Program-made: the position numbers and the translations under genes | Assembly: GCA_963802965.1 (NCBI GenBank) | Contig: CAWDKS010000008.1 | Location: forward strand, 71,790-135,789 | Reading direction: 5' to 3' | DNA: 64,000 nucleotides | Source of the DNA: an uncultured Verrucomicrobiae bacterium | GTDB taxonomy: Bacteria > Verrucomicrobiota > Verrucomicrobiia > Limisphaerales > UBA11358 | The notes under the pieces: model-generated | The model's database searches: none | Told to the model about the DNA's origin: nothing | What the model saw: the letters and a program-made list of their open reading frames with translations, nothing else | Part shown: one piece after another, positions 1,211 through 63,672 of the stretch | Layout of the letters: every line of letters begins with the position of its first letter | Numbering within the stretch: the first letter of the stretch is position 1

Positions 1211-1858
1211 TCAAACCAGTGCCTGTTGAATCCGCCGCACGACTTTGTTCGGCCCGGCCTTTAGCCTTTGGCCTTTCTTGCCGCGCCGAAATCTAATGAA
1301 GGCGGGAGCCTTCAGCCTTGCCAAATCGCATTCCCAAATCCGAATCACGCGCCAGCCGCCCCGCCGCAAAGTGCGGTTCACAAGCCGGTCACGGGTTTTG
1401 TTGCCCGCCAATTTCTTTTTCCAGAAGGCATAATTGTTCCTCGGCTTGGTTGCGTGCCTGGGGCAGCCATGCCAGAAACAGCCGTCCACAAAGATTGCCG
1501 TGCGCGATTTGAGGAAAACAAAATCCGGTTTCACGCGAAAGGTAGGGCGCGTCACTTCCGCCGTCGCCTGGCTATGGCGGGACAGGCCGTGCGCGCCGCG
1601 TTTTGAGGTAGGGACATCGCGCTGCGATGTCCGCGACGCGTGCAGCGTCGCAACCGTTCCAGGCTTGTTCCGGCCCTGCACGGGCCGGTGACGCCGCAGC
1701 GCGGCATCCCTACCACGGATTTCGACATGTCGTCGCCAGCCTTTGATGCCGTGTCGCTTTAACAATTTTGCCAGCGCCAGTTCCGTGTCCTTGTTCCCGC
1801 GCCCGCGAATCCGTGACATGACTTCGGAACGTTTCCGTTTTGAAAAGACATCAGCCAT
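1211..1858 (-). CDS. Vsr-like very-short-patch-repair endonuclease paralog carrying a 59-aa internal insertion and a C-terminal extension
   Basis: N-terminus MADVFSKRKRSEVMSRIRG.. and core KPDFVF..AIFVDGCFWHGCPRHAT..FWKKKL..N..RD align residue-for-residue with the 139-aa Vsr at 3258..3677; extra segment lies between WRRH and KPDFVF. Confidence 0.75.
   Translation of the reverse strand: MADVFSKRKRSEVMSRIRGRGNKDTELALAKLLKRHGIKGWRRHVEIRGRDAALRRHRPVQGRNKPGTVATLHASRTSQRDVPTSKRGAHGLSRHSQATAEVTRPTFRVKPDFVFLKSRTAIFVDGCFWHGCPRHATKPRNNYAFWKKKLAGNKTRDRLVNRTLRRGGWRVIRIWECDLARLKAPAFIRFRRGKKGQRLKAGPNKVVRRIQQALV
1541..1717. repeat. repeat-derived in-frame insertion inside vsr paralog (GGTAGGG..CCCTACC hairpin-type sequences)
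   Basis: Segment absent from paralog 3258..3677; contains ggtagggacatcgcgctgcgatgtcc and gcggcatccctacc, related to ggtaggg-type hairpins at 48815-48866 and 59398-59440; boundaries approximate. Confidence 0.55.
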
Positions 1859-1963
1859 TCAGCCGGTTGAGGGTTGAGGGTTGAAGGTTGAGAGCCTCAG
1901 GCGCGACTTGCTGCGCCTCGGAAACATTGCCTCCTTTACGTCCGACGCAGAAGAGGTTACTTT

Positions 1964-2191
1964 ATGTCCGTTATGATCGTTCCACTCTCGAAAGTGCAGT
2001 TTCGTCGGGATGAAGACGGCGTGTGGATTGCCAAGTCCGCCCTGCTGCCCGGCTGCCACGCGCACGGGCGCGACCGGGGTGAAGCTGCGCTTAGATTCCA
2101 ACAGGCTGCCAAGGCACATCTGGAAGCATTGCTCGAAACCGGACGTCCCATTCCCGCCGCCTTCCGCGACAAATTCGTCCTCGCCGCCTGA
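1964..2191 (+). CDS. hicB: HicB-like antitoxin (UPF0150-type N-domain)
   Basis: DEDGVWIAKSALLPGCHAHGRDRGEAALRFQQAAKAHLEALLE matches the HicB pattern (..W.A..P.LPGC.A.G.T.EEA......A....LE). Confidence 0.65.
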   Translation: MSVMIVPLSKVQFRRDEDGVWIAKSALLPGCHAHGRDRGEAALRFQQAAKAHLEALLETGRPIPAAFRDKFVLAA

Positions 2192-2194
2192 CCT

Positions 2195-2350
2195 GTGGGC
2201 AAATATCCCTCTTGGAACTGCCGTCAGCTTGACCGTCGTCTGCGTGAGATTGGCTGCGAACTCCTTCGCACCACCGGGAGCCACCGGCGTTATCCAGTCC
2301 TACATCGACATCTATCTGGTCAAGTGGTAAAAACTTTGTCGCGTGGCTAA
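2195..2350 (+). CDS. hicA: short HicA-like toxin candidate (51 codons, GTG start; below ORF-track cutoff)
   Basis: My translation: VGKYPSWNCRQLDRRLREIGCELLRTTGSHRRYPVLHRHLSGQVVKTLSRG*; L..LG....R..GSH..Y core is HicA-like; starts 4 nt after hicB stop; shorter than typical HicA. Confidence 0.4.
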   Translation: MGKYPSWNCRQLDRRLREIGCELLRTTGSHRRYPVLHRHLSGQVVKTLSRG

Positions 2351-3236
2351 TGCAGTTTTTACAACGAAAGTAAATCCGGTCTACGATGATCTGCCGGAGA
2401 TTCGTTACCACTTTCCTTCGACATATCTTAATCAGGCCAAACAAGCAGTGGGGAATTTGATTGTATATTATGAACCACGGCGTGAAAGCTCGGATCTATC
2501 TGGCCGGGCGGGCCGCCAGTGCTATTTTGCAACTGCACGGGTCGTGAAAATCGAGCCGGACCGGGGAAGGCGCGATCATTACTATGCATACCTGACAGAT
2601 TACCTCGAATTTACAAAACCTGTCCCTTTCAAGGCAGGAAACAACTATCCTGAAGCTGGGCTGCGGAAGGCGGATGGGTCGACAAACAAAGGACGCTTTG
2701 GCCGGTCAATACGGATAATTTCGCCCCAGGAATTTCAAGCGATTTGCCGACTTGGATTTGCAGATGCGGCAAAACCTCCCGAAAAGGAGCAACCCGTTGA
2801 AGCGTTCGCGGAAGAACCGTTGGAATATGGAGGTCCTAGACAGATGCAAATTATGGAGAGACCTTTCCGGGACAGAGTGTTTACTCGTGTGATTCAAGAA
2901 GCATATGATAATACCTGTGCAATGACCGGCCTCAAACTCATCAACGGTGGAGGGCGTTGTGAGATTGAAGCTGCCCATATCAAGCCGGTGGCCGATGACG
3001 GTCCAGATTCACCGCGTAACGGTATCGCACTGTCGCGTACCATCCATTGGATGTTTGACAAACACTTCCTTTCAATTTCGGACTCAGGTAATATCTTAGT
3101 TGCCAAGAAATATGTTCCGGACCCGATTCGCCGTCTGTTAAATCAAGATGGTCAGGTTAAGTTTCCATCTTCCTCGGCATGGCAGCCGCATAAGGTCTTT
3201 TTGCATTACCATCAAAACCTTTTTAAAGGCGACTGA
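2343..3236 (+). CDS. HNH endonuclease with ~170-aa N-terminal domain (putative restriction endonuclease, possibly modification-dependent)
   Basis: C-terminal HNH motif EAAHIKPVADDGPDSPRNGIALSRTIHWMFDKHFLSI; N-terminal YHFPSTYL..VYYEPRR..YFATARV architecture recalled from COG3440-like putative restriction enzymes (from memory). Confidence 0.75.
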   Translation: MANAVFTTKVNPVYDDLPEIRYHFPSTYLNQAKQAVGNLIVYYEPRRESSDLSGRAGRQCYFATARVVKIEPDRGRRDHYYAYLTDYLEFTKPVPFKAGNNYPEAGLRKADGSTNKGRFGRSIRIISPQEFQAICRLGFADAAKPPEKEQPVEAFAEEPLEYGGPRQMQIMERPFRDRVFTRVIQEAYDNTCAMTGLKLINGGGRCEIEAAHIKPVADDGPDSPRNGIALSRTIHWMFDKHFLSISDSGNILVAKKYVPDPIRRLLNQDGQVKFPSSSAWQPHKVFLHYHQNLFKGD

Positions 3237-3257
3237 TTTGTTTTAGAAGCATTCCAT

Positions 3258-3677
3258 TCAGGCCGGCAAGTCGAGGTGGTGACAAATTCGTCGGAGCAAA
3301 CGGGCTTCATTTTTAAGAACCAGTTCATGTTGCCAAATCCTCAATATAGCCCACCCACGTTGTCGGAGCGTGCGGTTCACAATTCGGTCACGGTTCTTGT
3401 TGCGGGCGAGTTTCTTCCGCCAAAACGCTCTGTTGGTTGCTGGCTGTGTCGCGTGTCGAGGGCAACCATGCCAAAAGCAGCCATCCACAAAAATTGCAAG
3501 TTTGATTTTTGGAAAAACGAAATCGGGTTTGCCAAAGACCGATTGGTGACGCCTCCAGCCTGTAAGTTTGTGTCGTCGCAGGACGTTCAAAAGCGCAAGT
3601 TCGGTCCGTTCGTTTCCATGGCCACGCACGCGTGCCATGATGGCGGAACGTTTTGGTTTGGAGAAAACATCAGCCAT
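3258..3677 (-). CDS. vsr: very short patch repair endonuclease Vsr
   Basis: 139 aa; KPDFVFPK..AIFVDGCFWHGCPRHAT..FWRKKL.RN..RD..V...L...GW..LRIW; ATG abuts TAA of upstream exonuclease gene. Confidence 0.9.
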   Translation of the reverse strand: MADVFSKPKRSAIMARVRGHGNERTELALLNVLRRHKLTGWRRHQSVFGKPDFVFPKIKLAIFVDGCFWHGCPRHATQPATNRAFWRKKLARNKNRDRIVNRTLRQRGWAILRIWQHELVLKNEARLLRRICHHLDLPA

Positions 3678-4247
3678 TTATGACGGAAGAACCCCTGTAA
3701 AAACTGGGGTCGGAAGAGTGGTATAGTTTGGCACAAGCTGTTGCCACATTTTAACGACTGCTTCAGCGAGAAGGCCAACGTCTCCGCGAGCGTCATGTCG
3801 TCGGTACCCGGATGTACTCAGACGGAGGCGTTCCAAAACGGCATCCAGACCGTGCCGCCTAGATGATTGCCAGACCTGTTTTGAAAGATTAATCGAATCG
3901 ACATATCCGATCGAACGAGTCGGAAGTTTACTTTTCGAGCACGCTGCACGTATGAAAGGCATATCGAAACGGTGTCCGTTATGAGCAAGAAGGATATTGT
4001 TACCGACAAAATGGGAGAAATCAGCGAGCGCAAAGGATGCCGGCGGCGCATTACAAACATGTCGATCGGAGATGCCGGTGTAAGAAGTAATAAATGATGG
4101 GATTCGACAGCCTGGATTTACGAAGGTGGAGAACGCTTCAGTGTGTGAGATCGCTCCGGATTTCACGCGAACCGCTGCAATCTGAATTATGTCATTCGCG
4201 GTCGGCGAAAGTCCTGTCGTTTCAAGATCGAAGATCACCAAATCCAT
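3678..4247 (-). CDS. DnaQ-like DEDDh 3'-5' exonuclease
   Basis: ExoI FDLETTG, ExoII LLAHNGHRFDMPFI, ExoIII HDARGDV; starts 6 nt after helicase-nuclease stop. Confidence 0.85.
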   Translation of the reverse strand: MDLVIFDLETTGLSPTANDIIQIAAVRVKSGAISHTEAFSTFVNPGCRIPSFITSYTGISDRHVCNAPPASFALADFSHFVGNNILLAHNGHRFDMPFIRAACSKSKLPTRSIGYVDSINLSKQVWQSSRRHGLDAVLERLRLSTSGYRRHDARGDVGLLAEAVVKMWQQLVPNYTTLPTPVFTGVLPS

Positions 4248-4253
4248 ACACTA

Positions 4254-5336
4254 CTACGCTCCCGGCCTCGCCTTTTTGTGGGTGACCGCCTCTTTCTGAC
4301 CGCAGATTCCGACAAAATCACATCTAGGGCATCGATGTTTGCCTTCTGCGTTCGCCTTCGGCCCCACGTTGAATTTGCGGTCCCGGATTTCGGCGGCAGT
4401 CTTCGCAACACGACTTTGCGCAGCCTCAAGGTGAGATTTGTCCAACGGCACGCGAAGTTCTCGTTTCTCATCCTGCTTTGCGTCCAGGTATCGAACCAAC
4501 CCGGCTTCCGGTTCGTATTCCAATTCCTTCTTGGCGGCGAGCGCATAAATCGCCACCTGCAGCTTCATTTCCTCCTCATCCAGCTTCATGTGCTTATCGG
4601 ACTCCGGATCGCCTGACTTAAAATCAACGAGTGTCACCCGAGGAGGATCATCGCGCCGTACAATATCAATTGCGCCTGAAACTAGCGCACCCCCGTCCTT
4701 GTCCGGATACTCGACTAGCGTTTCAAATGATTTTTCTGGCTCGAATGTCAAATCCTTCAATTCTCCGGCGAAGCGTTCGACATAATCTGCAACGACTTGG
4801 ATTCCTTTTTTCCACATGTTTTTTGCCGGGTCACCAGTCGTGTAGCGCAAATAAAAAAGTCCGCGGTCGATCTGCTTTTGAATTTCCGCTTCAAGTATTT
4901 TCCGGTCGTTAGCCAACTCAGCCCAGCGCTGTGGGGCGGAATGAATCGCCCGCATCAAATTATGGATGCCGCGTCCGTAACCGAAAGCCTGGTCAATTGT
5001 CGGCGCGAAGCCCATGACTTTTCTGAGATAAAAATCGTGAGGGCAAGCCAGATAGTAACGGAGATCAGAAAACGAAGTAGCGAGCTGCACGTTTCGCATG
5101 TGTTCCTTGGGCGCGTATTTGAGTTCGCGTAACAGAGCCGCGGAATCATTTGTGACGCGACCACCGGACTCCCCAATTATTTGAGAAAGCCCTGGTATAG
5201 CTGGAGTCGTTCTGGTCTTTTTTACGCCTTGAATGAATCGCGAAACCTTGTTGCCCGAATAACTGACAAAGAGAAACCGTTCTGCGCGCGTAAGAGCAAC
5301 GTACATCAAGCGGCGCTCTCCATCGTGGTTCTCCGT
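4254..5336 (-). pseudogene. UvrD-family helicase-nuclease, C-terminal fragment (helicase motif VI plus Cas4/AddB-type PD-(D/E)XK Fe-S nuclease)
   Basis: GERRLMYVALTRAERFLFVSY (motif VI); nuclease: CPHDFY, GRGIH, AIDIV..LVDFKSG, QVAIYALA, CPRCDFVGIC (4 Cys). Confidence 0.85.
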
Positions 5337-6924
5337 TCGTTTACCCGAATCTCACCCCCCGATTGAACTTGGCGAGGCCGAAGCGGAATGGTGCAAAAAG
5401 GCCGAACTACTTACAGAAGTTGGTACTTCGGATGAAACGAAGGCGTTCGCCGTCTCCGCCGCCCGCTACTACGCGTATTTGCGCTGCCGCCGATTTCTGG
5501 ATTTTAGCACGTCACAGGGAGAGTTCATCCGCCGCCTGGAGGCCGACAAAGAAAAGCGGAAGGAATTGCAGAAATCAAATATTCATCTCGTTGTTGACGA
5601 AGTACAAGATATCAACCCGATTCAAATGCAACTCATCCGTCTTTTAACCGATGAATCAGGCAAGCTCACATCCGTCGGCGACCATCGGCAGTCAATTTAC
5701 GGCTTTCGCGGCGCCAAGGTGGAGTTGATCGCCGAACTGTGGGAAGAATTCAAAAAGGACAAGGACGCCGAAGTTGTTGATTTGCAGGAAAACTTCCGCT
5801 CCACGGGACGGGTCATTGATGTTGCGAACAAATGGGCGGAAACAATTGGAACGGTCGGGGCGATGGAAACGCTCGGGATGAAACATGGAAACAAACATCG
5901 GACGGATCACCACCCTTCGCATGTCGCGTTGATAGGTTTCGACGAACGCGTTGATGAAGCACGGTGGATTTCAGAAGCCATTCGCGAAATCGTCCCGACC
6001 GAGGCGCAAGGAGCGCTGCACGATAAGCGCGACGGTAAATATCGCGGCCTAACTCTTTCTGATGTCGCCATTTTGGTTCGTTCATCCACGGACGTTCGGA
6101 CATATATGCGAGTTCTGGAGGAAGCAGGCATCCCCTCAATTGTCCGGGCAGGCCCGGACCTTTTTTCACAGCCTGAAGTTCTGTTTTTCATCGGCGCAAT
6201 TGGCATCACTGCAGGCGTTGACGAATTTTGGGGCTCAAGCATTGGCAATAAAAGTCTACCAAAACGAATCGAAGCTGTTCTCGAATGTGCGCCCGCGCCA
6301 GAAACTGTTCTTCGCGCAGCGGCCAGACAACTGCGAAAATCCCAACTGTCAGTGAGTCGCGAGGTGGAAGATAGAACAGTTCTGGCCGCCTCGATGATTC
6401 GCGATCGAATCGGCGGTAAATCATTCCACCAAAGCCAAACCAAGATTTTGAGAACGGAAGGCCTGCGAGATTTTCTTGAACGGAAACCGGAACTGCGCCG
6501 GCTTTTTCCGCAGCAACTTTTTCATTGGTTGCTTTCGGAAGCGGAAGTGGAAAACTGGGACACGTGCGAAGGTCGCGGGCAGGCGGCAATGTTTCATCTT
6601 GGCGCTTTGAGTGGACTCATCACCGGAATCGAGACGCCCGGCTGGACAAATACGAAGTCCTACAAGTGGCAAGTCATCGGTCTTTGCCAGTATGGCGCAG
6701 AAGATGGCCGCGTGAAGGAGCAGCCGCTCATGGTGCAACCGGAGGCCGTCACCATCAGCACAATCCATGCGGTCAAGGGACTAGAGTTTCCGGCAGTGTT
6801 TCTGGCCGACGTGAAAGCATTACGATTTCCTAGCAGCATGGCCACTCGTGGAGTAAATCTTCCCCTTGGACTAAAGATTTCGAAAGAAATCAATATAGAT
6901 GGCCTTTCCGATAATGAGAAACGA
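5337..6924 (+). pseudogene. same helicase gene, central fragment (motifs II-V) in inverted orientation
   Basis: Read on the plus strand: LVVDEVQDINPIQ (II), GDHRQSIYGFRGA (III), ENFRSTGRVI (IV), TISTIHAVKGLEFPAVFLADV (V); bounded by TCGTTT 5337-5342 / AAACGA 6919-6924. Confidence 0.85.
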
Positions 6925-7457
6925 TTGTGTTCTTGAAGTTGATCGTAGGCTTGTGTGAACTGCTCAAAGGTCTCCCCCTGGCCAGCATCGGAACCGTTAT
7001 TGTGTTTCGGCAATGCGGCACGCAAAGCATTCAACGCCAGCAGCCCATTGAATCCTCGGAGTATCAACGCCGCCCGCGCGCCCTCGTCCAAAATGTCGTA
7101 GTTGTGATAATCGTCGGGCCAAAACTCCCTGATCTTGGCTAGACAGTAACCGTGGATCGTGCCGATATACATCCCACCGAGAGAAACATCTTCTCCTGCT
7201 GGAGTAACTTTACCGATCCAAGAGCGGATACGGAATTTCATTTCCTCCGCGGCACGTTCGGTGAACGTAAAGGCCACAATTTGGTCCTTTTCCACCTTCT
7301 CGACACCGACCCACCAAGCAATCCTGCGCGCCATTACTTCGGTTTTGCCAGATCCAGCGCCCGCAACCACTAATACGCGGCGTTTTGATGACTGAATAGC
7401 CAGTTTTTGATTCTTCGTCAGGTTATCATCAAGCAGTATTTCTTGAATCCTCGGCAT
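6925..7457 (-). pseudogene. same helicase gene, N-terminal fragment (motifs Q, I, Ia)
   Basis: MPRIQEILLDDNLTKNQKLAI.., VLVVAGAGSGKTEVM (I), AFTFTERAAEEM (Ia), GTIHGYC; AAGGA SD 13 nt after MTase stop. Confidence 0.85.
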
Positions 7458-7470
7458 ACAGTCCTTTCGA

Positions 7471-8490
7471 TTAACCCACGAATTTCCGAATCTGCCTAGC
7501 TTGTCTTCGGATGAACTCCGGCGGCAGCGCATTGCCTATCATTTGTGCGGTGGGAAACTTTCCGCGTGCGAGTGAGAAGAAATAATTTGGCGGAAAAGTC
7601 TGGAGTAGCGCTGCCTCGCGGAGCGTGATGGTGCGATTTTTTGTCGGATGTAAGAATCGGCCCTTTGACGGATTTACACAACCGCCCGTTATCGTCGGTG
7701 AAACGTCATCCCATGACATACGACCATAAACGTCTTTGAATCCGTCACATCTTCGGTGACAATCGAGCTGGTGCCTCGCACCCATATCAAGCCGACTGCC
7801 GCCGTTCTTTGGGATGCGCTGGATGAGTTGCTTCACTTTCTTACTCCGCGACTCCGGCAGATTGTGCAGCGGGTCGCGTCGCGAAAAACGCTTGGTCAGT
7901 TTGGCAAACGTTTCACGCACGGTTCGGACACGGCGAGCAGCAGTTCCGAAGGGGATTTCCGCGCCTTGACCCGCCAGGAGAATGAAACGGCGTCGGCGTT
8001 GTGGTACGCCATAGTGCCGGGCGTCTTTGACCGCAGCATTTACCGTGTAGCCAAGCTGCTTCAATGCAGCCTTAAATTTTGGCAAACGGGCGTTGTCCGC
8101 CAAACCTGGCACATTCTCCATCATAACTGCTTTGGGACGAAGGCCTCGAATCAGACGGAGAAAATCGAAAACCAAGTCGTTTTGCTCGTCCCGCACACGG
8201 CGTGCGCCGTTAAGTCGTCGCATAGCGCTGAACCCCTGACACGGCGGACAGCCAGCCAAGAGGTCGAGGTCTCCGCGATTGAAGCCAAGTGCCTTTAGAA
8301 TTTGGGGCGTTGTGAGTTTACGGATGTCTTGCCGCCAAAGATAAACCTCGGAATGATTTACGCTGTAGGTGTCCGCTGCCAGCGAATCAATTTCCACTGC
8401 ACCAACAACTTTAAATCCAGCGCGCTTGAGACCCAACGTCAGGCCGCCACAACCCGAAAACAAATCTATGGCTCTTGGTTTCTTCTTCAC
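7471..8490 (-). CDS. dcm: DNA (cytosine-5) methyltransferase
   Basis: Motif I DLFSGCGG, IV GCPPCQGFS, VI MENVPGL, VIII QRRRRFIL, X GNALPPEF; GTG start overlaps upstream stop (GTGA). Confidence 0.92.
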   Translation of the reverse strand: MKKKPRAIDLFSGCGGLTLGLKRAGFKVVGAVEIDSLAADTYSVNHSEVYLWRQDIRKLTTPQILKALGFNRGDLDLLAGCPPCQGFSAMRRLNGARRVRDEQNDLVFDFLRLIRGLRPKAVMMENVPGLADNARLPKFKAALKQLGYTVNAAVKDARHYGVPQRRRRFILLAGQGAEIPFGTAARRVRTVRETFAKLTKRFSRRDPLHNLPESRSKKVKQLIQRIPKNGGSRLDMGARHQLDCHRRCDGFKDVYGRMSWDDVSPTITGGCVNPSKGRFLHPTKNRTITLREAALLQTFPPNYFFSLARGKFPTAQMIGNALPPEFIRRQARQIRKFVG

Positions 8491-8714
8491 ACGTCCACTC
8501 TTTTGCAGAGTTCCGAGATGGAAATCTTGAGAGCCTTGGCAATACGGGCAACGTTTTTGATGCCGGGGTTACGTTTTCCGCATTCGATGCCGCTGATGTA
8601 GGTCTGGTCGAGGTCGGACTTTTCGGCGAGCAATTCCTGTGAAAAATCCAATTTTTCACGACGCCGACGAACGTTTCGCCCTAGAGCCATCAAAACAGGA
8701 TGTCGTTTTGGCAT
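8487..8714 (-). CDS. XRE-family HTH regulator (controller/C-protein-like)
   Basis: 75 aa; LGRNVRRRREKLDFSQELLAEKSDLDQTYISGIECGKRNPGIKNVARIAKAL; first gene of the MTase operon. Confidence 0.8.
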   Translation of the reverse strand: MPKRHPVLMALGRNVRRRREKLDFSQELLAEKSDLDQTYISGIECGKRNPGIKNVARIAKALKISISELCKRVDV

Positions 8715-8719
8715 GACTC

Positions 8720-8757
8720 ATAGTCTATAGGCGCGTCCAAAAATAATTATGGACTAT
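8720..8757 (-). promoter_or_regulatory. candidate operator (C-box-like nested inverted repeats) just upstream of the HTH gene
   Basis: ATAGTC (8720-8725)/GACTAT (8752-8757) and GTCCA (8735-8739)/TGGAC (8750-8754) in an AT-rich leader. Confidence 0.3.
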
Positions 8758-8801
8758 CAGTAATAATCGGCGGGCAAGCAAAGAGGCTTATGGAGTATCA
8801 G

Positions 8802-9035
8802 TCAGGTTGTTTCTGCACGCGGTTTTTTGCCCAAAGCATCGAGCCGTTGATACCGTTTTTCTTCCAGTTCCTTTTCCTCGCGGTTTAAATCCGCCATCCA
8901 TTCGGCGAACGGCTTGTCGCCGGGCTCGCGTTTGAACACGCCGCGAAACGAATGAATGAGCTTCCGCATTTCTTCCGTCTTCATCTGATTCCGACGCGAC
9001 GAGTCCGGCGACAGTTTCTTCTTCCGGCGAGGCAT
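8802..9035 (-). CDS. hypothetical protein (charged, helical)
   Basis: ORF 8802..9050, likely start MPRRKKK at 9035; no family recognised. Confidence 0.35.
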   Translation of the reverse strand: MPRRKKKLSPDSSRRNQMKTEEMRKLIHSFRGVFKREPGDKPFAEWMADLNREEKELEEKRYQRLDALGKKPRAETT

Positions 9036-9469: not shown

Positions 9470-9592
9470 CTTTGGACTGCAATAGTCGCGGACTGTCCCC
9501 GGATGTGATTCTGCCCCCGGTGACCGGAGTTTCAAGGCGGAAACATCGAACATCGAACGCTCAACATCCAACATCCAATGAAGGCGGCCGAC

Positions 9593-11494
9593 TCAAACCG
9601 TTCCCGCGGGCTTCGCAACGCGGTAGCTGCGCCACAGTTTGACCGGCAGCAGGCCGAGGAGGATGAGGATGACCTGGCTGCCGATGAAGAGGCTCAACCA
9701 TTGGAATGCCGCGTCGGTGAATCCGTAGCTGTGCAGGCCGATGCCGAGCATGTTCACGCCGAACCAGGAGAAGCTGGTGACAATGTTGCCGAACACGGCC
9801 AGGTTCATCAGGCCGCGCTCGCGCACGAGGCCGCCCCAGCGCGCGTGCAGGATGGTCGCGTTCCACAACACGATGAGCAGCGCGCCGTTTTCCTTCGGGT
9901 CCCAGCCCCAGAACCGGCCCCACGACTGGTCGGCCCAGATGCCGCCAAGCACCGTGCCGACAAAGCTGAACAGCGTCGCGAAACAAACAATGCCATAAAC
10001 CATCCGCGCCAGTGATTTGGCGGTTTCCGCCGAAAGCGTGGTGGTGAACACGCCGCGCAGGATGTAAATGATGGCCAGAAACCCCGCCACAAAGGTCGAG
10101 GCGTAGCCGAGCGTGACGGTCACGACGTGGGTGGCCAGCCAGAAATTGGTGTCGAGCACGGCGCGCATCATTTCCATGGTGTCGCCGCCGAGCGCCAGGT
10201 TGTGCGCGATGATCAGTGTGACGAAACCGACAAACGCCGCGACGACGCAGCCGATGCCGTCGCGGTAAATTTTCTCGAGCACCATTCCAAGGATGACCGC
10301 CGCCCAGCCGATGAAAATGGCCGAGGAATAAAGGTTGGTCACCGGCGGCCGGCCTTCGAGATACATCCGGAACACGAGGCCGAACGTGTGAATGAGCCAC
10401 GCGAGAAAGATGAGATAAAACGCCGAACGCCGGAGCCAGTCCGAGGCATTGAATGCCGGCGCTTTGCGGGTGGCGGTGGCGCCACCGCCACCGAACCACG
10501 ACAGGAATGCGAGCACCAGGGCGAGCACGTAGATGACCATGGCCTTGTAGAACGGCTCCATCGTGCTGAAGAAACATTCCTCGTTCGCCTTGCGCACCTG
10601 CGGCGCGAAACGCTCGGCCAGCCACGCGTGGTATTGACCCACCAGGCGGTTGAAATCGTCCGGCAGCCCGGAACGATAGGCGGTCACCATTTCGGCATAA
10701 AATGTTGTCGCCGGGTTGAATTCGCCGGTGCGCGCGGTCTGCATGAGGTTGGTGCCGATGTTCTGCCAGTCGTCGCGCGGCAGGGCGGGGTCCATGGGCG
10801 GAATGGTCAGCGGCAGGGCGAAGCTGGCGACGGTGTTGTAATTGCCCATGAAACCCAGCAGGGTGTTGAAGGCGTCCTGGTCGAATTTTTTGCCGGCGTC
10901 ACGGGCGTCCACGGCGGCAATGCCCGGCGCGATGCTCTTCTGGTAGGCATCCAGTTCCGCCGCAAAATCGTCCGAAGCCGGCGGTTTGAGGCTGACTTCG
11001 AGCCGCTGATACAGGTCCATGGCCTCGTAGAGCTTCATCAACTGCGACTCGAAGACGGTGCGTTTGGAAGGATCAACCGGCCCGATGCGGCTGACCTGTT
11101 TTTCAATCTCGTCCATCTGCGGACGGATCTGGTTGAAGGAATAATATTTCTGGTTGTCGGGCAGCTTGAGCAGCTCGGTGACCTCGTTGTTGTCAATGCG
11201 GAAGACTTTCCGGTCGTCGGACGCCTCGGGTTTCATCATCGCTTCGAGCAGCCAGTCCATGGCGGACATCTCCCTGCTTTTGCCATTTTCCTCGGTGAGG
11301 ACGGTTTGTCTGGCGCGGATTTGGAGCAGGGAATTGCGGGCGACGGAATCGAACGGCTGGAAGCGGCCGTTCATGAGGACGGGCAGTTTGCCAAAAGCGC
11401 GGGTGTTGAAGCCGGTTTCCGGCGGCTGACGCAGGCCGGACAGCGCCCAGCCCGCCATCACCACAACCAGAATGAGGGGAATCCACTTTTTCAT
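9593..11494 (-). CDS. ccsA: cytochrome c biogenesis protein CcsA/ResC (System II) with long N-terminal periplasmic extension
   Basis: Trp-rich heme-handling motif WADQSWGRFWGWDPKENGALLIVLW; multiple TM segments; start MKKWIPLILVVV. Confidence 0.88.
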   Translation of the reverse strand: MKKWIPLILVVVMAGWALSGLRQPPETGFNTRAFGKLPVLMNGRFQPFDSVARNSLLQIRARQTVLTEENGKSREMSAMDWLLEAMMKPEASDDRKVFRIDNNEVTELLKLPDNQKYYSFNQIRPQMDEIEKQVSRIGPVDPSKRTVFESQLMKLYEAMDLYQRLEVSLKPPASDDFAAELDAYQKSIAPGIAAVDARDAGKKFDQDAFNTLLGFMGNYNTVASFALPLTIPPMDPALPRDDWQNIGTNLMQTARTGEFNPATTFYAEMVTAYRSGLPDDFNRLVGQYHAWLAERFAPQVRKANEECFFSTMEPFYKAMVIYVLALVLAFLSWFGGGGATATRKAPAFNASDWLRRSAFYLIFLAWLIHTFGLVFRMYLEGRPPVTNLYSSAIFIGWAAVILGMVLEKIYRDGIGCVVAAFVGFVTLIIAHNLALGGDTMEMMRAVLDTNFWLATHVVTVTLGYASTFVAGFLAIIYILRGVFTTTLSAETAKSLARMVYGIVCFATLFSFVGTVLGGIWADQSWGRFWGWDPKENGALLIVLWNATILHARWGGLVRERGLMNLAVFGNIVTSFSWFGVNMLGIGLHSYGFTDAAFQWLSLFIGSQVILILLGLLPVKLWRSYRVAKPAGTV

Positions 11495-11506
11495 AATTTC
11501 GTTCGG

Positions 11507-11583
11507 TCTGTAGCAGTCCCGCCGAGCGGGATCAGTCCGCTCCATTCTGGTGAAGTGTGAGCCGACTCACGTCGGCTGCTACG
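11507..11583. repeat. family-A palindromic element (GTAGCAG..CTGCTAC termini)
   Basis: tgtagcagtcccgccgagcggg...gagccgactcacgtcggctgctac; intergenic ccsA-resB. Confidence 0.7.
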
Positions 11584-12789: not shown

Positions 12790-12898
12790 TTCTCCCTCTC
12801 CTCCCCAAAGAGGAGAGGGGCGGGGTGAGGAGGCCGATTATTTCAGGATTAAAATCCCCTCTCCCCGGCCCTCTCCCCGCCTGGGCGGAGCGAGGGAG
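12790..12898. repeat. family-C ~110-bp element (CTCCCTCTCC...GGAGCGAGGGAG)
   Basis: Reverse complement matches 52345-52490 and 14251-14362 by eye. Confidence 0.7.
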
Positions 12899-14250: not shown

Positions 14251-14362
14251 CTCCCTCTCCCCGCCAGAGCGGGGAGGGGGCTGGGGCGAGGGGATTTGAT
14301 CTGGAAAAAACAACGAGCCTCCTCACCCCGGCCCTCTCCTCGTTTGGCGAGGAGAGGGAGAA
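14251..14362. repeat. family-C ~110-bp element
   Basis: ctccctctccccgccagagcggggaggggg...gagcctcctcaccccggccctctcct...ggagagggag. Confidence 0.65.
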
Positions 14363-43463: not shown

Positions 43464-43532
43464 TGGGAGGGACGGCGTGCCGCCGTCCCTGTTATAAAGG
43501 AAAAATGGGACGGCAACATGCCGTCCCTCCCA
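43464..43532. repeat. family-B element (paired GGGACGGC..GCCGTCCC hairpins)
   Basis: tgggagggacggcgtgccgccgtccct..gggacggcaacatgccgtccctccca; near-identical to 51294-51352. Confidence 0.75.
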
Positions 43533-44413: not shown

Positions 44414-44506
44414 CACCCGCCTCCGGCGGGTTCAATTCGGCGTCCCGCCGAATTACCACGGCAAGCGGAGAATTACCGACAACCGGGCAAGTGCCGGCAA
44501 ATTGTG

Positions 44507-45562: not shown

Positions 45563-45617
45563 GCGGCAGGTGAAACGTGAGACGTGAAACGTGAATTCAC
45601 GCCTCATGTTTTACGTC

Positions 45618-48785: not shown

Positions 48786-48987
48786 TCACGCTGACTCTTT
48801 TTCCGGCTTCATGGTAGGGCCGGCGCTGCCGCGCGGCCTCGGACGACCAGCAGGTCGTCCCTACCAACCAAAATAGCTCGCTATCTGATTACGTTTGCAT
48901 TTGACGGATGAGCGTTGATGTTTAGAATTAAAAGCTCGTTTGAACGAGTTAAAGACATTGAAACACACTGACGAGAAAGATTGAGTT

Positions 48988-50229: not shown

Positions 50230-50730
50230 TTCAACCGCCCAGCGAACCCGGATTCCCCACGTCGCCCTTGTTGAAATCCACATATTCCTCCGTCAAATCG
50301 GCGGCGTAAATTACTGCGCCGGCTTTGCCGAGGTTCAGGCGGATGTGCAAATCAAATTCCTTCGGCGCCACAGCGATACAAAGCTGTTTGAACGTCGCCT
50401 GGGTCGGCTGGCCGCGCTTGAGGCTCCAGAGAATTTTTTTACCGCCAGCTACGCTGTAGCCGATGTCCACCTTTTCTTCGACAATTTTTGCCGGTGAATA
50501 GCCGAGCGCGTCAATGATGCGGCCCCAGTTCGGGTCGCCGCCGTGCCAACTCGTTTTCACGAGCGGACTGTTCGCCACCGCCCGCGCCGCGGCATCGGCA
50601 TCGGCAACAGATTTCGCACCGTTCACGCGCACCGTCACGACGCGATGAACCCCTTCGCCGTCGCGCACGATCATTTTCGCCAGCTCCAGGCAGACGTGAT
50701 TCAAAGCCGTTTGAAAAACTCCAAGGTCTT

Positions 50731-50797: not shown

Positions 50798-50972
50798 CAT
50801 TGGCGGGTTTCCCGCCAGCCCGTTCGCCAGGACCAGCACCGTGTCGTTCGTGCTCATGTCGCCGTCCACGGTAATGCGATTGAAACTCTGCGCGACGGCT
50901 TCCTGCAAAGCGGCCTGCAAAGTTTTTGCCTCAATCGCCGCATCGGTGGTGATGAAACACAAGCATGGTTGC

Positions 50973-51035
50973 GTGAAGCGTTGAAGCGTTGAAGCGTTGA
51001 AGCGGCAGCGCCGCCGGTCGTGCGCCGGTGGCGGA
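50973..51035. repeat. 63-bp insertion inside argJ containing an 8-bp tandem repeat (TGAAGCGT x3)
   Basis: gtgaagcgttgaagcgttgaagcgttgaagcggcagcgccgccggtcgtgcgccggtggcgga; encodes SATGARPAALPLQRFNASTLH just before the ATML motif. Confidence 0.6.
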
Positions 51036-51837: not shown

Positions 51838-52821
51838 TTAGATTTTTACTGCGTCAATTTCCAGCCGCACCATGCGGACGTGGACGCGCCCATCCGCGTC
51901 CGGTGGATGTTTGACGAGGTAGCGGTCCGTGACGGCAGCGATGAAATCCCCGCGCAAATTTTCCGGCACGCGCTGGACGTAGGGCAGCCACGTCGTGCGC
52001 AACCAGGCTGTAAAGCCCTGGCGCCCGTCGTAGCTGGCATCTTTCGGCGACAGCCGCACACCCAGTGATTTGAACCCAAACCGCGGCAGCCATTTTTCAT
52101 AGCTGTCCGGGCTGTGGAAAAAATACGGCTTTTCCAGCTTCCGGAAAAATTCGCGCCAGCGTTTGAGCCGCATCTCCGGGCGCAACGCAACGAACACGTC
52201 GTGCGCGTTGCCCCTGCCGCCGCATGAAACCACCAGCCGTCCGCCGGAACGCAGGCACGCCGCCGCGCCGCGCAAAAACGCCCGGTGATCGTCCACCCAA
52301 TGCAGGGCGGAATTTGAAAAAATAATATCGAAAGGCATGAACTTGACTCCCTCGCCCCGCCTGAACGGGGAGAGGGTTGCCCGTCCTCCGTAGCAGTACT
52401 GCGGAGGGTGGAGGGCGAGGGGTTTTGAATTTGAAGCAATCGGCCTCCTCACCCCGGCCCTCTCCTCCTTTTGGGGAGGAGAGGGAGAAGACAAGGCGGC
52501 AAGACTGATTTCCCGCGCATCGCAGATTTTAAACTCCAGATTCGGATGTTTGCGTGAGGGAAAAGTCTTCCGAGCGAACGCAATCATTTGCGGCGAGGCG
52601 TCAACGCCCACCACGGAACCGCGCGGCACGGCCTGGGCGATTTCGGCGCTGACCTTGCCATCACCGCAGCCGACATCTAGGACGTGCTCATCGCCGCGCA
52701 GATGGAGCTGCGCGATAAGTTCGCGCGCCCAGGCTTGCTGCACGCTGGAATTCGCGGCGTAATCAGAGGCATTCCACCTGGCTGCCCTTTTCTTTGTGGG
52801 AGACGAGGTCACGAGACTCAT
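51838..52821 (-). CDS. Tam-like class I SAM-dependent methyltransferase with ~55-aa repeat-encoded insertion
   Basis: VLDVGCGDGKVSAEIA (motif I), ..FDIIFSNSALHWV, GGRLVV; insertion lies between ICDAREIS and MPFDIIFSN. Confidence 0.75.
   Translation of the reverse strand: MSLVTSSPTKKRAARWNASDYAANSSVQQAWARELIAQLHLRGDEHVLDVGCGDGKVSAEIAQAVPRGSVVGVDASPQMIAFARKTFPSRKHPNLEFKICDAREISLAALSSPSPPQKEERAGVRRPIASNSKPLALHPPQYCYGGRATLSPFRRGEGVKFMPFDIIFSNSALHWVDDHRAFLRGAAACLRSGGRLVVSCGGRGNAHDVFVALRPEMRLKRWREFFRKLEKPYFFHSPDSYEKWLPRFGFKSLGVRLSPKDASYDGRQGFTAWLRTTWLPYVQRVPENLRGDFIAAVTDRYLVKHPPDADGRVHVRMVRLEIDAVKI
52345..52490. repeat. family-C element with a nested 31-bp mini-element, in-frame inside the methyltransferase gene
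   Basis: Matches the reverse complement of 12790-12898; nested ccgtcctccgtagcagtactgcggagggtgg at 52381-52411 also occurs at 62056-62086. Confidence 0.72.
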
Positions 52822-52956
52822 TTCAAATGCAGAAGGCGAAATGAAGAATGATGAAGCTGTTCCGGGACCGCTTCACTTCAAAGAGCTGTTTCTTCATTCA
52901 GCATTCTTCCTTCATCCTTCAGTTTGAGCCTCCTTACGTCGGCTGCTACGGCCGAT

Positions 52957-54018: not shown

Positions 54019-54150
54019 TTTTCAAATCTTACCGGGAGGGTCGCCGTGTCGGCGACCCAAATTTTCTTTCGGGGACGGCGGCACGCCATCCCTCCCAAAA
54101 CAAAAAAGCCCCGCCGGTTTTGCCAGCGGGGCCTGGAAATTTTCACGCGA

Positions 54151-58359: not shown

Positions 58360-58476
58360 AAATCACGGCAGACGCGACTGTTTATCCGCGAATTGCGCCA
58401 ATTATCGCTAATTTCGGAGCGCGGACAGCTTGTCCGCGTTTATCTTTCAACTCGCGGGCTCGCAGCCCGCGCTCCT
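58360..58476. repeat. family-E ~115-bp element, copy 1
   Basis: aaatcacggcagacgcgactgtttatccgcgaattgcgccaattatcgctaatttcggagcgcggacagcttgtccgcg...; ~90% identical by eye to 60299-60446. Confidence 0.75.
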
Positions 58477-59283: not shown

Positions 59284-59459
59284 TTGGCTCCCCTGCCTCC
59301 GTCACAAAGTGGTTGATGGTTGAGCCGTCTTCGCTGCGCTTCGTCGCGCCAAGGAGTTGAGGGTCACGGCAATCGCCATTCGCTCGATGTGACTTTAACG
59401 GTAGGGCAGAGCTGCCGCTCTGCTGGGAATGGCGGCGCAGCGGAGACTGTCTCAAAACT

Positions 59460-59535
59460 GTAGCAGCGGACGTGAGTCCGCTCTAATCTTAAACGAAATT
59501 CCAAGAACAGTGAGCCGACTCACGTCGGCTGCTAC
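59460..59535. repeat. family-A element
   Basis: gtagcagcggacgtgagtccgctc...gagccgactcacgtcggctgctac. Confidence 0.75.
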
Positions 59536-59668
59536 CAAAAAATGGCGTATGGAGACAATCTCAACGGCACCGTCCTGCCACAACCCACTTTACCACAATC
59601 ACCATTCGCCACGACCAATGTGCAGCCATAATCCCGCATCGCGCAGCACCTGCAATTGCCGGCGGATT

Positions 59669-60298: not shown

Positions 60299-60446
60299 AA
60301 ATCACGGCAGACGCGACTGTTCATCCGCGAATTACGCCAAATATCGCGAATTTCGGAGCGCGGACAGCTTGTCCGCGTTTTGCTTCAACTCGCGGGTTGG
60401 TCCACCCTCCACCGTAACGCTACGGCGGACGGGCAGCCCGCGCTCC
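60299..60446. repeat. family-E element, copy 2 (with ~35-bp internal insertion)
   Basis: aaatcacggcagacgcgactgttcatccgcgaattacgccaaatatcgcgaatttcggagcgcggacagcttgtccgcg... Confidence 0.75.
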
Positions 60447-60484
60447 CACGGCAGACGTCCGAGGCCGGGCCTTGTCGCGCCAGC

Positions 60485-60768: not shown

Positions 60769-61848
60769 TCACCTCACCCACAGAAGAATCAGCAAATCGA
60801 TGGCAAAGAAAATCACGATGATGATTTCCAGCCATAACATCCGTTGCTCGTTCAGTTCGGCGTGGACGACGCTGTAAAGCTTGTCGAGCTGGGCGAGGCG
60901 TTGCTCGACGCTGGCACGCCATTGGTCGAGATAAAAACGGTCGCGCGCGCCGAGATAAACGCGGGCGAGATGCCAGTCGCCAAAAAATTTCGTGATGTGC
61001 GTGACCTCGTCGGTGAGTTTCGCCACGTCCACGCGGAACCGGCGCAAATGGCGCAACACCTTGTTCGCCCGGCCGAACAAGGGCACGTGCTGCCGTTCCA
61101 CGTCCTCATAAGCCCGGTCGAGATAAGTGTCGAGCCGGCGATCCATCACGCGGAATTCCTCCAGTTGCAGGTTCGCCAGTTCCAGGGCATACAACACATC
61201 GTCCACGTAGCCTGTCAAATCCACCACCAACGCCGCGTCCCAGTCAATCACCACCAGGTCCGTGTTTTCGAACGAGCGCTGGATGCGCAGCACCTCGGTC
61301 ACCTGCGCCTCGCTCAACTGCTCCGCCGCCGTCTCCGTGAGCAGCCCCGCCACCGCGCGCCGTTGACCCTCGAGCCAGCGGTTCACATCCTTCACCACCG
61401 CCAGATCGGTCAGGCAAAACACCGTGTAAGCCTCCGGCGGCGGCGGAAACTCCGTGCGCGCCACCAGCAAATCCCGGAGACTCTCGCAGACATCCGCGCA
61501 AAGCTTCACCGCCACCGCATCCAGCGTCTCACCGGTTTCCAGCTTCGGATTGTGAAACGGCATCAGGTCCGCCAGCGCGTCGGTGTCAAACGCCGCCCGC
61601 ATCATCACCGTCACCACCCCCACGTCGTAAACGCGAATCAGCAGGCGCACGGGTGCGCCGTGCAACCGGCCGGGTAACGGATGCGGCTCGATGGCCAGCG
61701 GCTTGTAAAGCGGCATGTCCTTCGGCAACGTCCGGTCCATCCGGATTTCGAACGGGAACGGTTTTTCCGACAGGATTTCCTGCACGCGCGACGTGATGAT
61801 TTCGTTGGCCACATCAAACGCGTAAAGATAGACGACTTCACCTTTCAT
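60769..61848 (-). CDS. RMD1/DUF155 (YagE-like) family protein with C-terminal TM helix
   Basis: MKGEVVYLYAFDVANEI.. start, long helical region, C-terminal WLEIIIVIFFAIDLLILLW; family call from memory. Confidence 0.6.
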   Translation of the reverse strand: MKGEVVYLYAFDVANEIITSRVQEILSEKPFPFEIRMDRTLPKDMPLYKPLAIEPHPLPGRLHGAPVRLLIRVYDVGVVTVMMRAAFDTDALADLMPFHNPKLETGETLDAVAVKLCADVCESLRDLLVARTEFPPPPEAYTVFCLTDLAVVKDVNRWLEGQRRAVAGLLTETAAEQLSEAQVTEVLRIQRSFENTDLVVIDWDAALVVDLTGYVDDVLYALELANLQLEEFRVMDRRLDTYLDRAYEDVERQHVPLFGRANKVLRHLRRFRVDVAKLTDEVTHITKFFGDWHLARVYLGARDRFYLDQWRASVEQRLAQLDKLYSVVHAELNEQRMLWLEIIIVIFFAIDLLILLWVR

Positions 61849-62043
61849 CCGCTTAAAGCTACTCTCCGAAGACGAATTGTCGAGACCACCGGTCAATTCA
61901 AGCGAACTACGCGGAAGGAAAATCAAGGCAGCCGCCAGAAGCCGCAAAGCGGTTGAGGGTTGAGAGTTGAGCGTCACGACAATCGCCATTCGCCGCGCTC
62001 AAAAGCATAAACATCGGCGGTCGTGAATTCGTTTGTAGCAGCC

Positions 62044-62138
62044 GACCCGTCCTCCGTAGCAGTACTGCGGAGGGTGGACGTGAGTCGGCTCTGACTTTTA
62101 AGAATGAGCGAACTCACGTTCGCAGCTACGGTCGCGCT
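62044..62138. repeat. family-A element carrying the nested 31-bp mini-element
   Basis: gtagcagccgac[ccgtcctccgtagcagtactgcggagggtgg]acgtgagtcggctc...gagcgaactcacgttcgcagctac. Confidence 0.72.
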
Positions 62139-62375
62139 CCCCAGCACGATATTCAACACATCCAGCGTCCAGCCGCGCCGGCTGCCGGGGACGAGAACGA
62201 TTACCCGAAACGGACAATTTTTGGTGTGTTTTTGGCAAAAAGTCAGTGGCGTCCGCATCCTTTCATGAAACATTCAAGGTAGAAGCAGTCTTTGTCTGGG
62301 GATACAACCGTATCGCTTGACCGTGGCTGCCGGCCTATGGGGAAGCCCAAGGCAAAAATTAATTGATATTTCAAT

Positions 62376-62783
62376 ATGATACCATGGAGTGAGCAGTTTG
62401 CAACGGGTTCCAGCGAGCTTGACCACCAACACCGGATGTTGATCAACAACATCAATCATCTGGAAGGAATGCTGGCCGTCTCCAATCCGACCCGGGAGGA
62501 ATGTGAATTTGTGATCCAACTGGTGGATTTTCTGGACAGTTACGCCAACACGCATTTCGAGCTTGAGGAGCAATGCATGCAGCGTCACCGGTGTCCGGCC
62601 CATGAAGAAAACAAACTGGGTCACGAACAGTTCCGGGCCTTTTTCCAAACCTTCAAGAAGCGCTACAAGGCGGAAGGCTTCCGCCGGGAAGTCATTTTGA
62701 GCCTGCATCAAACGGCCAGCCGTTGGATTGAGGAGCACATTCTAAGGGTGGATACCCAACTCAGGCCATGCATCAAACCTTGA
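62376..62783 (+). CDS. bacteriohemerythrin
   Basis: MIPWSEQFATGSSELDHQHRMLINNINHL.., ..THFELEE.., ..H...H..F, WIEEHILRVD. Confidence 0.85.
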   Translation: MIPWSEQFATGSSELDHQHRMLINNINHLEGMLAVSNPTREECEFVIQLVDFLDSYANTHFELEEQCMQRHRCPAHEENKLGHEQFRAFFQTFKKRYKAEGFRREVILSLHQTASRWIEEHILRVDTQLRPCIKP

Positions 62784-62904
62784 CTTCAAAGCAGCGCGAA
62801 GACGGAGGGCGCCGGATGATTTGCGACGGTCACAGACCGCCGCTACAACGTTCAGAACCCGCCTTCCCCAAAAATCAAAAGGAGCCGGATTCTTCCCCTT
62901 GTTT

Positions 62905-63462
62905 ATGAAAACCATTGCGCCCGCCGAACTCCAAAAATTACTGGTCGTTCAACCCAACCTGCCCGTGCTGGATGTCCGCACGCCGGCGGAATACGCCGAG
63001 GCGCATGTGCCGCAAGCCCGCAACGAACCGCTTGACAAACTTCAGTCCAAGGCGCTCTACGCGGCGGGCGGCCTGCCCAAGGATGGTCCCGTTTACATTC
63101 TCTGCCGTTCGGGCGGACGCGCCACCAAGGCGGCGGAACTGTTCGCACGGGAAGGATTCGATCAAGCCGTGGTTGTGGAAGGCGGCACGCAGGCGTGGTG
63201 CGTTGCCGGCCTGCCCGTGAGCCGCGGCAGCGTCAAAGTCATCAGCCTCGAACGACAGGTGCGGATTGCCGCCGGTTCAATCGTGCTGATTGGAATCCTG
63301 CTCGCATGGCTCATCCATCCGGGCTTCGTTGGAATCTCGGCGTTTGTCGGGGTTGGGCTGGTTTTTGCCGGCATCACGGATTGGTGCGGCATGGGAATGT
63401 TGCTGGCAAAGATGCCGTGGAATCAATCCGCCGGTTGTGCCACGGCTTGCAAACCGACGTGA
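62905..63462 (+). CDS. rhodanese domain fused to DUF2892-like membrane tail (YgaP-like)
   Basis: VLDVRTPAEYAEAHVPQARN.., ILCRSGGRATKAAE; C-terminal two TM with ITDWCGMGMLL. Confidence 0.85.
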   Translation: MKTIAPAELQKLLVVQPNLPVLDVRTPAEYAEAHVPQARNEPLDKLQSKALYAAGGLPKDGPVYILCRSGGRATKAAELFAREGFDQAVVVEGGTQAWCVAGLPVSRGSVKVISLERQVRIAAGSIVLIGILLAWLIHPGFVGISAFVGVGLVFAGITDWCGMGMLLAKMPWNQSAGCATACKPT

Positions 63463-63590
63463 CTTGAAATTTCACGGCAGACGCCAGAGGCCGCAAAGCG
63501 ATTGAGGGTTGAAGGTTGAAGGTTGAGGGTCACGGCGATCGCCATTCGCCGCGCTCAAGAGCATAAACCTCGGCGGTGGTGAATTCTCCA

Positions 63591-63672
63591 GTAGGAGCCG
63601 ACGTGAGGAGGCTCAGACTTTCCGGCTGGCCAGGAGGTTTTTCAGATGGAGTCTCGTTACCTCGTCTCCTAC
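63591..63672. repeat. family-A variant element
   Basis: gtaggagccgacgtgaggaggctc...gagtctcgttacctcgtctcctac. Confidence 0.75.

Follow-up and report, generated by a model that had tools for sequence, protein, structure and literature searches.

How short palindromic repeats come to lie within the reading frames of conserved enzymes is the question raised by a 64,000-nt stretch of Verrucomicrobiota DNA (the window hereafter; positions 71790-135789 of contig C8 in a 3.30-Mb, 12-contig assembly of 58% G+C, labelled G000). A preliminary description of the window reported several families of such elements that had entered conserved genes, and one another, with the frame kept, and our comparisons with orthologues bear out this core reading. 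In our view, families A, B, 8 and 17 and a 31-nt mini-hairpin are very probably repetitive extragenic palindromic (REP) sequences and their inverted doublets (REPINs), that is, hairpins mobilised by REP-associated tyrosine transposases (RAYTs), whose survivors within genes would be translated as extra peptides. The host is a soil or peat Verrucomicrobium with dozens of small hairpin-repeat families; the closest relatives of the window IlvC come from metagenome-assembled Verrucomicrobiota/Limisphaerales of bog, peat and soil origin, and the sequencing runs containing window sequence are soil, peat and wetland metagenomes.

Repeats were detected by blastn of the window against its own genome and by a genome-wide self-comparison that produced de novo numbered families, and single-strand fold z-scores were computed on representative window copies. 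About 35 window intervals recur elsewhere in the genome, with 2-61 further copies, and the self-comparison gave 1,079 short repeat intervals (108 kb in total) clustering into many families. The arm pattern of family A matched six times in the window and not once in 100 shuffles. Families A, B and C, like the mini-hairpin, are genuine repeats scattered through the genome, far beyond chance, and the copies described earlier lie where they had been placed (Table 1). The families share a common plan of two G+C-rich hairpins in inverted orientation flanking an A+T-rich spacer, while in a second repeat class the arms are made of tandem 7- or 8-nt units. The elements are G+C-rich and mostly 60-110 bp long, with imperfect palindromes of 20-40 nt able to form a stem-loop, and the representative copies, including arms of families A, B, 8 and 14, fold singly with z = -3.1 to -7.4. 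Family A starts with GTAG, finishes with CTAC and has three arm subfamilies; its 318 REP arms in the genome form 123 inverted doublets and 72 singletons, the doublets having a median length of 72 nt, conserved arms and spacers of 32% G+C. The GTAG foot is found in 91% of family A copies, nine further families have it in 70% or more of their copies, and family B carries the second-position variant GGAG. As GTAG-footed inverted doublets, these sequences are REP/REPIN sequences by definition. The architecture of family C is the same.

Seven window copies were verified to be in frame, against orthologues in related genomes or against solved structures of Vsr and of indole-3-glycerol-phosphate synthase (IGPS); they include all six that had been proposed in vsr, trpC, argJ (three times) and a methyltransferase. 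The vsr insert (fold z = -4.7) breaks the Pfam Vsr match into two stretches, and alignment with E. coli Vsr (1cw0) shows about 58 extra residues preceding 'KPDFVF'. The TrpC peptide with its insert includes '...RRARSGRSRGDEAQTK...', where about 20 orthologues of the same genus lack the insert and read '...AALRKPRHGDIALIAEVKK'; residues 49-74 stand opposite three residues of Brucella IGPS (PDB 3tsm), between the N-terminal helices and strand beta1. The same insert is found in two relatives (G002 and G003), a third (G014) has a different A subfamily at this site and two more (G020 and G017) have other inserts, and this variation of the arm subfamily between species suggests turnover. The family B copy just upstream of trpC is a noncoding spacer, the orthologue N-termini starting MNILD/VNILD.

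The three sites of argJ were compared across seven related genomes. The family A insert occupies the same site in L003, L004, L031 and L008, and L001, L002, L007 and L009 have a different insert or none. The 8-nt array, whose units were assigned to the inverted 8-mer-array family 4, lies three residues N-terminal of the ATML self-cleavage motif, and the relatives lack exactly these 24 nt. At the family B site, L007, L008, L009 and L001 have no insert, each of L003, L031 and L002 has a different one, and a related environmental contig has an empty site. In the methyltransferase, the family C insert interrupts the Pfam domain and adds about 50 residues relative to L002 and L009; in L008 this position is taken by a related insert. 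As suspected earlier, pdxA also carries a repeat-derived coding segment: the last ~20 codons and the stop come from the element, and the resulting tail 'CGSTRVPRVVSGVTPETDG' is absent in most orthologues, which end '...AKNKS'. The insert positions, mapped against the orthologues and structures, correspond to loops or termini. That the extra peptides were inserted and are not ancestral parts of the proteins is supported by the orthologues, most of which lack the elements or have different ones in these loops, and by empty sites in environmental contigs, although some relatives (G002 and G003 for trpC; L003, L004, L031 and L008 for argJ) do share inserts. The linker of mutL, another suspected case, was rejected as a repeat element, since blastn against the genome found no dispersed copies of it and it contains only a weak 3.3-copy 9-nt array at 27230-27259.

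Given that the genome is metagenome-assembled, the intragenic repeats could in principle be artefacts of assembly or binning, and two single-base indels lend this idea some substance. One extra base at 50959-50960, just past the ATML motif and unrelated to the elements, splits argJ into two open reading frames (ORFs), and another near 50070 removes the natural ilvC stop, so that a 413-aa ORF continues past the terminator to 50229 and only thereby reaches the family 5 REPIN. Both extra bases are missing in six or seven related genomes, which implies that the assembly may carry indel errors; they could be either assembly errors or real frameshifts. A relative's contig also lacks the argJ base, and the best DNA run covers the argJ locus in patches. 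However, the same inserts recur at the same codons in independently assembled genomes of other studies, and the inserts preserve the frame, where errors would break it, so that an artefactual origin is hardly credible. We had considered the 413-aa ilvC product as carrying an element-encoded C-terminal extension, but alignment places the extra base before the natural stop and the candidate was rejected. A hairpin, AAAGCCGCTGGAGCAATCCGGCGGCTTTT, downstream of ilvC (50090-50135) is kept in all aligned relatives and looks like its intrinsic terminator.

If the hairpins are moved by RAYTs, genes for such transposases could be expected among them. A search with Pfam Y1_Tnp (PF01797) found six loci, two of which are in-frame domains within ThrRS and PriA, and missed the RAYTs beside families A, B, 8 and 110, which were recovered by using the RAYT of a relative as query together with a local hidden Markov model (HMM). 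The local HMM gave nine RAYT-like loci in the genome, eight of them with flanking repeat families. The RAYT proteins scored with NF047646, the NCBIfam REP-associated tyrosine transposase model (cut-off 80 bits), namely those linked to families A, B, 8 and 110/111 and the thrS domain, all have HUH and Y..NP motifs. The family A-linked RAYT is 57% identical to one that also lies between A-like REPs in another genome of the order (G028), and the A REPs around it themselves contain nested mini-hairpins. In the RAYT-like ORF linked to family 1, a family 1 REPIN apparently also lies within the coding region of the ORF itself. Outside the window, thrS (C2:11040-13577) and priA (C12:54648-57575) contain complete RAYT domains read in frame, with HUH and Tyr motifs intact and GTAGCACCCGCG-type hairpins on either side; for the priA domain the match was to Pfam Y1_Tnp only. 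The terminal 25 nt of the pdxA element match the ends of the priA cassette at 25/25 and 24/25 positions. Like trpC, argJ and pdxA, both genes have no second genome copy. In relatives, in-frame RAYT cassettes occur at several sites of alaS as well as in priA, a DinG-like helicase and a DNA methylase, with open frames of 700-1,480 residues. A literature search found no paper describing such cassettes.

The nested copies give an indication of how insertion may proceed. The preliminary description had placed the 31-nt hairpin within a family C copy (52381-52411) and a family A copy (62056-62086), and comparison of filled with empty copies confirms both; family E provides a third case. None of the three nested insertions (in A, C and E) showed a target-site duplication when filled and empty copies were compared, and in two of the three the site is a hairpin loop. 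Terminal inverted repeats, small size and high copy number would also suit ordinary MITEs (miniature transposable elements with inverted repeats), deletion derivatives of DDE insertion sequences that move by cut-and-paste and leave target-site duplications. The lack of duplications and the loop sites agree better with HUH transposition of single strands than with DDE MITEs, a GTAG foot and arms that fold on themselves are typical of REPs, and the genes found between these ends are all of HUH/Y1 RAYT type, though no systematic DDE search was made; we therefore regard a MITE origin as highly improbable.

A genome-wide census of intragenic fraction, phase and length, as the preliminary description had proposed, was restricted to palindromic families with at least 5 copies (35 families, 756 copies). 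This restriction was adopted because an initial read-through count of 243, since rejected, included ordinary paralogous protein repeats. Of the 756 copies, 194 (26%) lie inside predicted genes, 184 (24%) overlap a gene end and 378 (50%) are intergenic, compared with 73, 16 and 11%, respectively, for random 80-bp placement. Some families never occur within genes, while families 10 (17/20) and 9 (14/21) are mostly intragenic. Sampled hosts include ClpB, PheS, CysS, Dus and alcohol dehydrogenase, with the inserts within or between Pfam domains. Among 31 intragenic family A doublets, 14 are read in phase 0, 17 in phase 1 and none in the TAG phase, and the same DNA thus gives different peptides in its two phases. 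The GTAG-to-CTAC span of these doublets showed no enrichment for multiples of three.

This usage bears on the idea that the inserted peptides are adaptive modules, such as linkers or interaction and regulatory loops, recruited by the host. Their position in loops and termini, and the retention of some across species, would agree with it. On the other hand, one DNA family read in two phases yields unrelated peptides, the orthologues work without inserts, the same elements are commoner in intergenic DNA, and conservation tracks the DNA palindrome rather than a codon pattern. In five species, the 48 arm positions of the argJ family A element have a mean pairwise identity of 98.3% and the spacer 78%, whereas the argJ host sequence of the same species has 93% at codon positions 1+2 and 67.7% at position 3. 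An arm identity so far above that of third positions argues for constraint on the arm DNA, or for homogenisation, and against constraint on the encoded protein, and we consider recruitment as peptide modules very unlikely.

Classical REPs have been proposed as gyrase or integration host factor (IHF) sites, mRNA stabilisers, and pause or termination signals, and the hairpins described here might be kept for such a role in host DNA or RNA, possibly besides a RAYT origin. It is in keeping with this that the argJ arms are more conserved than the non-synonymous positions of the enzyme, that family A copies have not degenerated further within genes than between them (2.97 vs 3.46 mismatches per doublet), and that many copies lie directly past stop codons or fill operon spacers. 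Yet presence and absence vary widely in congeneric orthologues, the same loop holds different families in different species, and the copy number of the family A REP, which 32 of 41 related genomes contain, varies between 0 and 164. The conservation of the arms is, moreover, equally expected from element-level selection or multi-copy gene conversion, and a host role seems to us unlikely as the reason for their upkeep.

The reading that we favour, mobile REP/REPIN hairpins dispersed by RAYTs, would work as follows. Each element is a short hairpin, rich in G+C and footed by GTAG (or GGAG), usually in an inverted doublet around an A+T-rich spacer, and would be moved as a single-stranded hairpin by a family-specific RAYT of HUH/Y1 type encoded elsewhere in the genome amid its own REPs. 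Insertion could take place anywhere, the loops of other hairpins included, and gene-breaking insertions would be purged by selection. The survivors in coding DNA are stop-free copies, never in the G-TAG frame, located in presumably tolerant loops or termini and probably translated as additional, mostly unstructured peptide segments to which the host proteins may be indifferent. Judging from the sequence comparisons, they persist over speciation-scale times, with arms constant at the DNA rather than the protein level.

Several results weigh against this reading or parts of it. The GTAG-to-CTAC span of intragenic family A doublets leaves remainders of 0, 1 and 2 in 10, 13 and 8 cases; a simple insertion model was dropped, as the lack of a multiple-of-three excess means that the inserted unit is not simply this span, or that later indels occurred. 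A full-length identity of at least 95% is reached by only 4 pairs of family A doublets, which gives no proof of very recent bursts. RNA runs contained only 5% of the sampled words, these being conserved parts from relatives only. The family A-linked RAYT (42.3 bits) falls under the NCBIfam cut-off of 80, and among the nine RAYT-like loci no transposase was linked to family C or to the 7/8-nt arrays. The census gene calls came from a self-trained codon-usage gene finder that is crude and missed vsr, a stricter read-through test failed on 3 of 6 verified window inserts, and the assembly has at least two single-base indels.

Rickettsia palindromic elements (RPEs), reportedly described by Ogata et al. 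in 2000 and 2002, were the likeness that the preliminary description had drawn. The behaviour is indeed the same: palindromic repeats sit within conserved genes without loss of the frame, occur in coding as well as non-coding DNA, are compatible with protein function and are absent from most orthologues. However, RPEs are A+T-rich, about 100-150 bp long, confined to Rickettsia and without a dedicated transposase, whereas the present elements are G+C-rich, mostly shorter and RAYT-associated. REP/REPIN-RAYT is the correct family, and the relation to RPEs is one judged by behaviour.

REPIN-RAYT systems of Pseudomonas and Enterobacteria are said to have been characterised by Nunvar in 2010, Bertels & Rainey in 2011 (PMC3116915) and Ton-Hoang in 2012. 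The present elements resemble them in their inverted doublets with a spacer, the GTAG foot, the location of the RAYT amid its own REPs, vertical inheritance and copy-number swings among relatives. Classical REPINs are, however, extragenic almost by definition and come with one to few RAYTs per genome, while here a quarter of the copies are coding, at least eight RAYT-like loci have distinct flanking families and two RAYTs lie in frame inside thrS and priA.

The closest precedent is the work of Di Nocera, De Gregorio & Rocco (2013, BMC Genomics 14:522, PMC3733652), who described superfamilies of GTAG and CGTC REPs, REPtrons particular to each family and REPs located within genes, and treated Rickettsia RPE-4 and RPE-6 as intragenic CGTC-type REPs. 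Their highest intragenic GTAG REP count, 70 supplementary entries, is that of Opitutus terrae, itself a member of the Verrucomicrobia, and the different lineage therefore does not make this the first such case. As in that study, we found GTAG-footed hairpins, single or dimeric, in multiple families per genome with family-specific RAYT genes; the published inserts encode about 8-30 residues within helicases, repair enzymes and tRNA synthetases, and two peptides of O. terrae GTAG-19, GTGVPPV and HGRHARAT, are a close match to peptides encoded by our family 10. This likeness was drawn at the level of the family 10 peptides. The present host belongs to Limisphaerales, another class of the phylum, and differs in its higher density (35 palindromic families, with 26% of copies in predicted genes) and in that biosynthetic enzymes (TrpC, ArgJ, PdxA) are hit. 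The finding is a rich new example of a published phenomenon, intragenic GTAG REPs, to which it adds the measurement of arm against codon conservation and the reuse of the same loops by different families.

The elements show the extent of selfish hairpin DNA that the core enzymes of a free-living bacterium tolerate, at a density that rivals Rickettsia. The same loop, empty or differently filled in sister species, amounts to a natural experiment on which protein sites accept 8-60 extra residues and on whether it is the element or the host that keeps up the REP arms. The inserts also matter for annotation, in that they inflate ORFs, pass for extensions of the N or C terminus and disturb domain assignment in genomes of Verrucomicrobiota. 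A further possibility, which we put forward tentatively and with more doubt than confidence, is that Limisphaerales REP-RAYT systems are specialists of coding DNA, with non-autonomous REPINs and complete REP-RAYT-REP cassettes carried along, translated but not spliced out, in permissive loops of essential genes present once per genome. There, imprecise deletion would be lethal and the elements might thereby be protected, cassettes without their own start or stop could be expressed from host signals, arms would stay intact through element-level selection or conversion, and loops could be recolonised by other families between species. RAYT cassettes inside essential genes would, if true, be a new niche for a transposase.

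Table 1. Repeat copies in the window and RAYT-like loci of the genome (positions in the window unless a contig is given).
Position	Element	Context	Remarks
1608-1714	Family 8 REPIN, GGTAGGG...CCCTACC double hairpin	In vsr (1211-1858, minus)	107 nt; 21 copies
1861-1900	Four tandem 7-nt units (GGTTGAG/GGTTGAA)	vsr/next-ORF junction	
11507-11583	Family A REPIN	5' edge of cytochrome c assembly gene (9593-11545, minus)	Extra small hairpin in left arm
12790-12898	Family C, CTCCCTCTCC...GGAGAGGGAG	Intergenic	~110 bp
14251-14362	Family C	Intergenic	Fold -37.4 kcal/mol, z = -5.6
43464-43532	Family B REPIN, two hairpins, GGGAGGGACGGC...	Fills spacer from upstream stop (43460) to trpC ATG (43535)	
43688-43759	Family A REPIN	In frame in trpC	72 nt = 24 codons; fold z = -7.4
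44408-44568	Family 17, non-autonomous, GTAGCACCCGCG... ends	Tail of pdxA (44507-45607, minus)	161 bp
48815-48866	Family 2 REP doublet, GGTAGGGCC...GTCCCTACC	Intergenic	GGTAGGG type; 72 copies
50146-50234	Family 5 REPIN, CGGAGGGGCGAG...CTCGTCCCTCCG	Between convergent ilvC and argJ ends	Common to L031
50731-50797	Family A REPIN, A2/A3 arms	In frame in argJ	
50972-51009	Three tandem 8-nt units, CTTCAACG on coding strand	In frame in argJ	24 nt = 8 codons
51294-51352	Family B REPIN	In frame in argJ	Fold z = -6.8
52345-52490	Family C	In frame in class I S-adenosylmethionine (SAM) methyltransferase (51838-52821, minus)	
52381-52411	Family 14 mini-REP, contains GTAG	Nested in methyltransferase family C copy	31 nt; hairpin fold; 15 free copies
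52922-52953	Family A single arm (half copy)	Intergenic, methyltransferase/argC gap	
54040-54095	Family B REPIN	Intergenic	Variant left hairpin (family 3, 34-44 hits)
58360-58476	Family E unit, empty site		94% identical to 60299-60446 apart from nested insert
59460-59535	Family A REPIN, A1 arms	Intergenic	Near-perfect; fold -23.5 kcal/mol, z = -7.4
60299-60446	Family E unit, filled site		~35-nt GTAG mini-REP variant in hairpin loop, about 60381-60415
61951-62040	Family D, three 7-nt units (GGTTGAG) + ~60-nt unit		Low-copy duplication, not palindromic
62044-62138	Family A REPIN with family 14 mini-REP in left hairpin loop (62056-62086)		Compared with uninterrupted arms
63501-63590	Second D unit, four 7-nt units + 60-nt unit	Followed by family A REPIN	Aligned with other D copies
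63591-63672	Family A REPIN, A2/A3 arms	Intergenic	
C1:171468-172094	RAYT	Family A REPs on both sides	HUH motif DHIHL, motif FYILANPVRAGL; NF047646 42.3 bits
C7:512422-512901	RAYT	Whole family B REPIN immediately upstream, half B past stop	NF047646 81.9 bits
C1:173765-174226	RAYT	Family 8 (vsr element)	NF047646 90.1 bits
In thrS and priA	RAYT cassettes, in frame	Family 17/24 (pdxA element), shared ends	thrS domain NF047646 83 bits
C1:122231-122938	RAYT-like locus	Family 12	
C3:950304-951257	RAYT-like locus	Family 1	
C2:28807-29298	RAYT-like locus	Family 110/111	NF047646 68.6 bits

Some of the remaining window copies differ from their earlier assignment. The copy at 48815-48866 had been listed as a relative of family B but belongs to the separate GGTAGGG family 2, while that at 54040-54095 is a family B REPIN. 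The family A copy at 11507-11583 overlaps just the start that is predicted for the cytochrome c assembly gene and its coding status is putative.

Families D and E, which had been grouped with the palindromic elements, are not elements of the REP/REPIN kind. Family D combines a heptamer array with a low-copy unit that duplicates a gene start: its ~60-nt unit corresponds to the first ~13 codons of the gene at 60769-61989 (minus) together with the sequence upstream of them, and the unique part has about 2 other genome copies by blastn, the regions 63470-63690 and 59290-59570 aligning with D. The unit at 63501-63590 looks like a relic of a gene start. Family E is a repeated unit, as described, and has the mini-hairpin site empty in one copy and filled in another, but it has only about three genome copies. 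Between 58300 and 63700 the order is E, gene, partial D and A, gene, E, gene, D and A, genes, D and A, with small genes of no known family. Short 7- or 8-nt tandem arrays occur in the window at 50972-51009, 1861-1900 and 9539-9582, and arrays of this type in other parts of the genome form long hairpins by pairing (families 4, 6, 7, 15 and 22).

A search against Rfam gave a single match, a tRNA, and no other family matched. A tRNA gene at 25802-25875 (minus) lies inside a 138-bp interval with about 6 other genome copies. The first part of the window (1-9000), where the gene finder failed, has a lower G+C content (52-55%) and atypical codon usage, contains vsr and may be acquired DNA.

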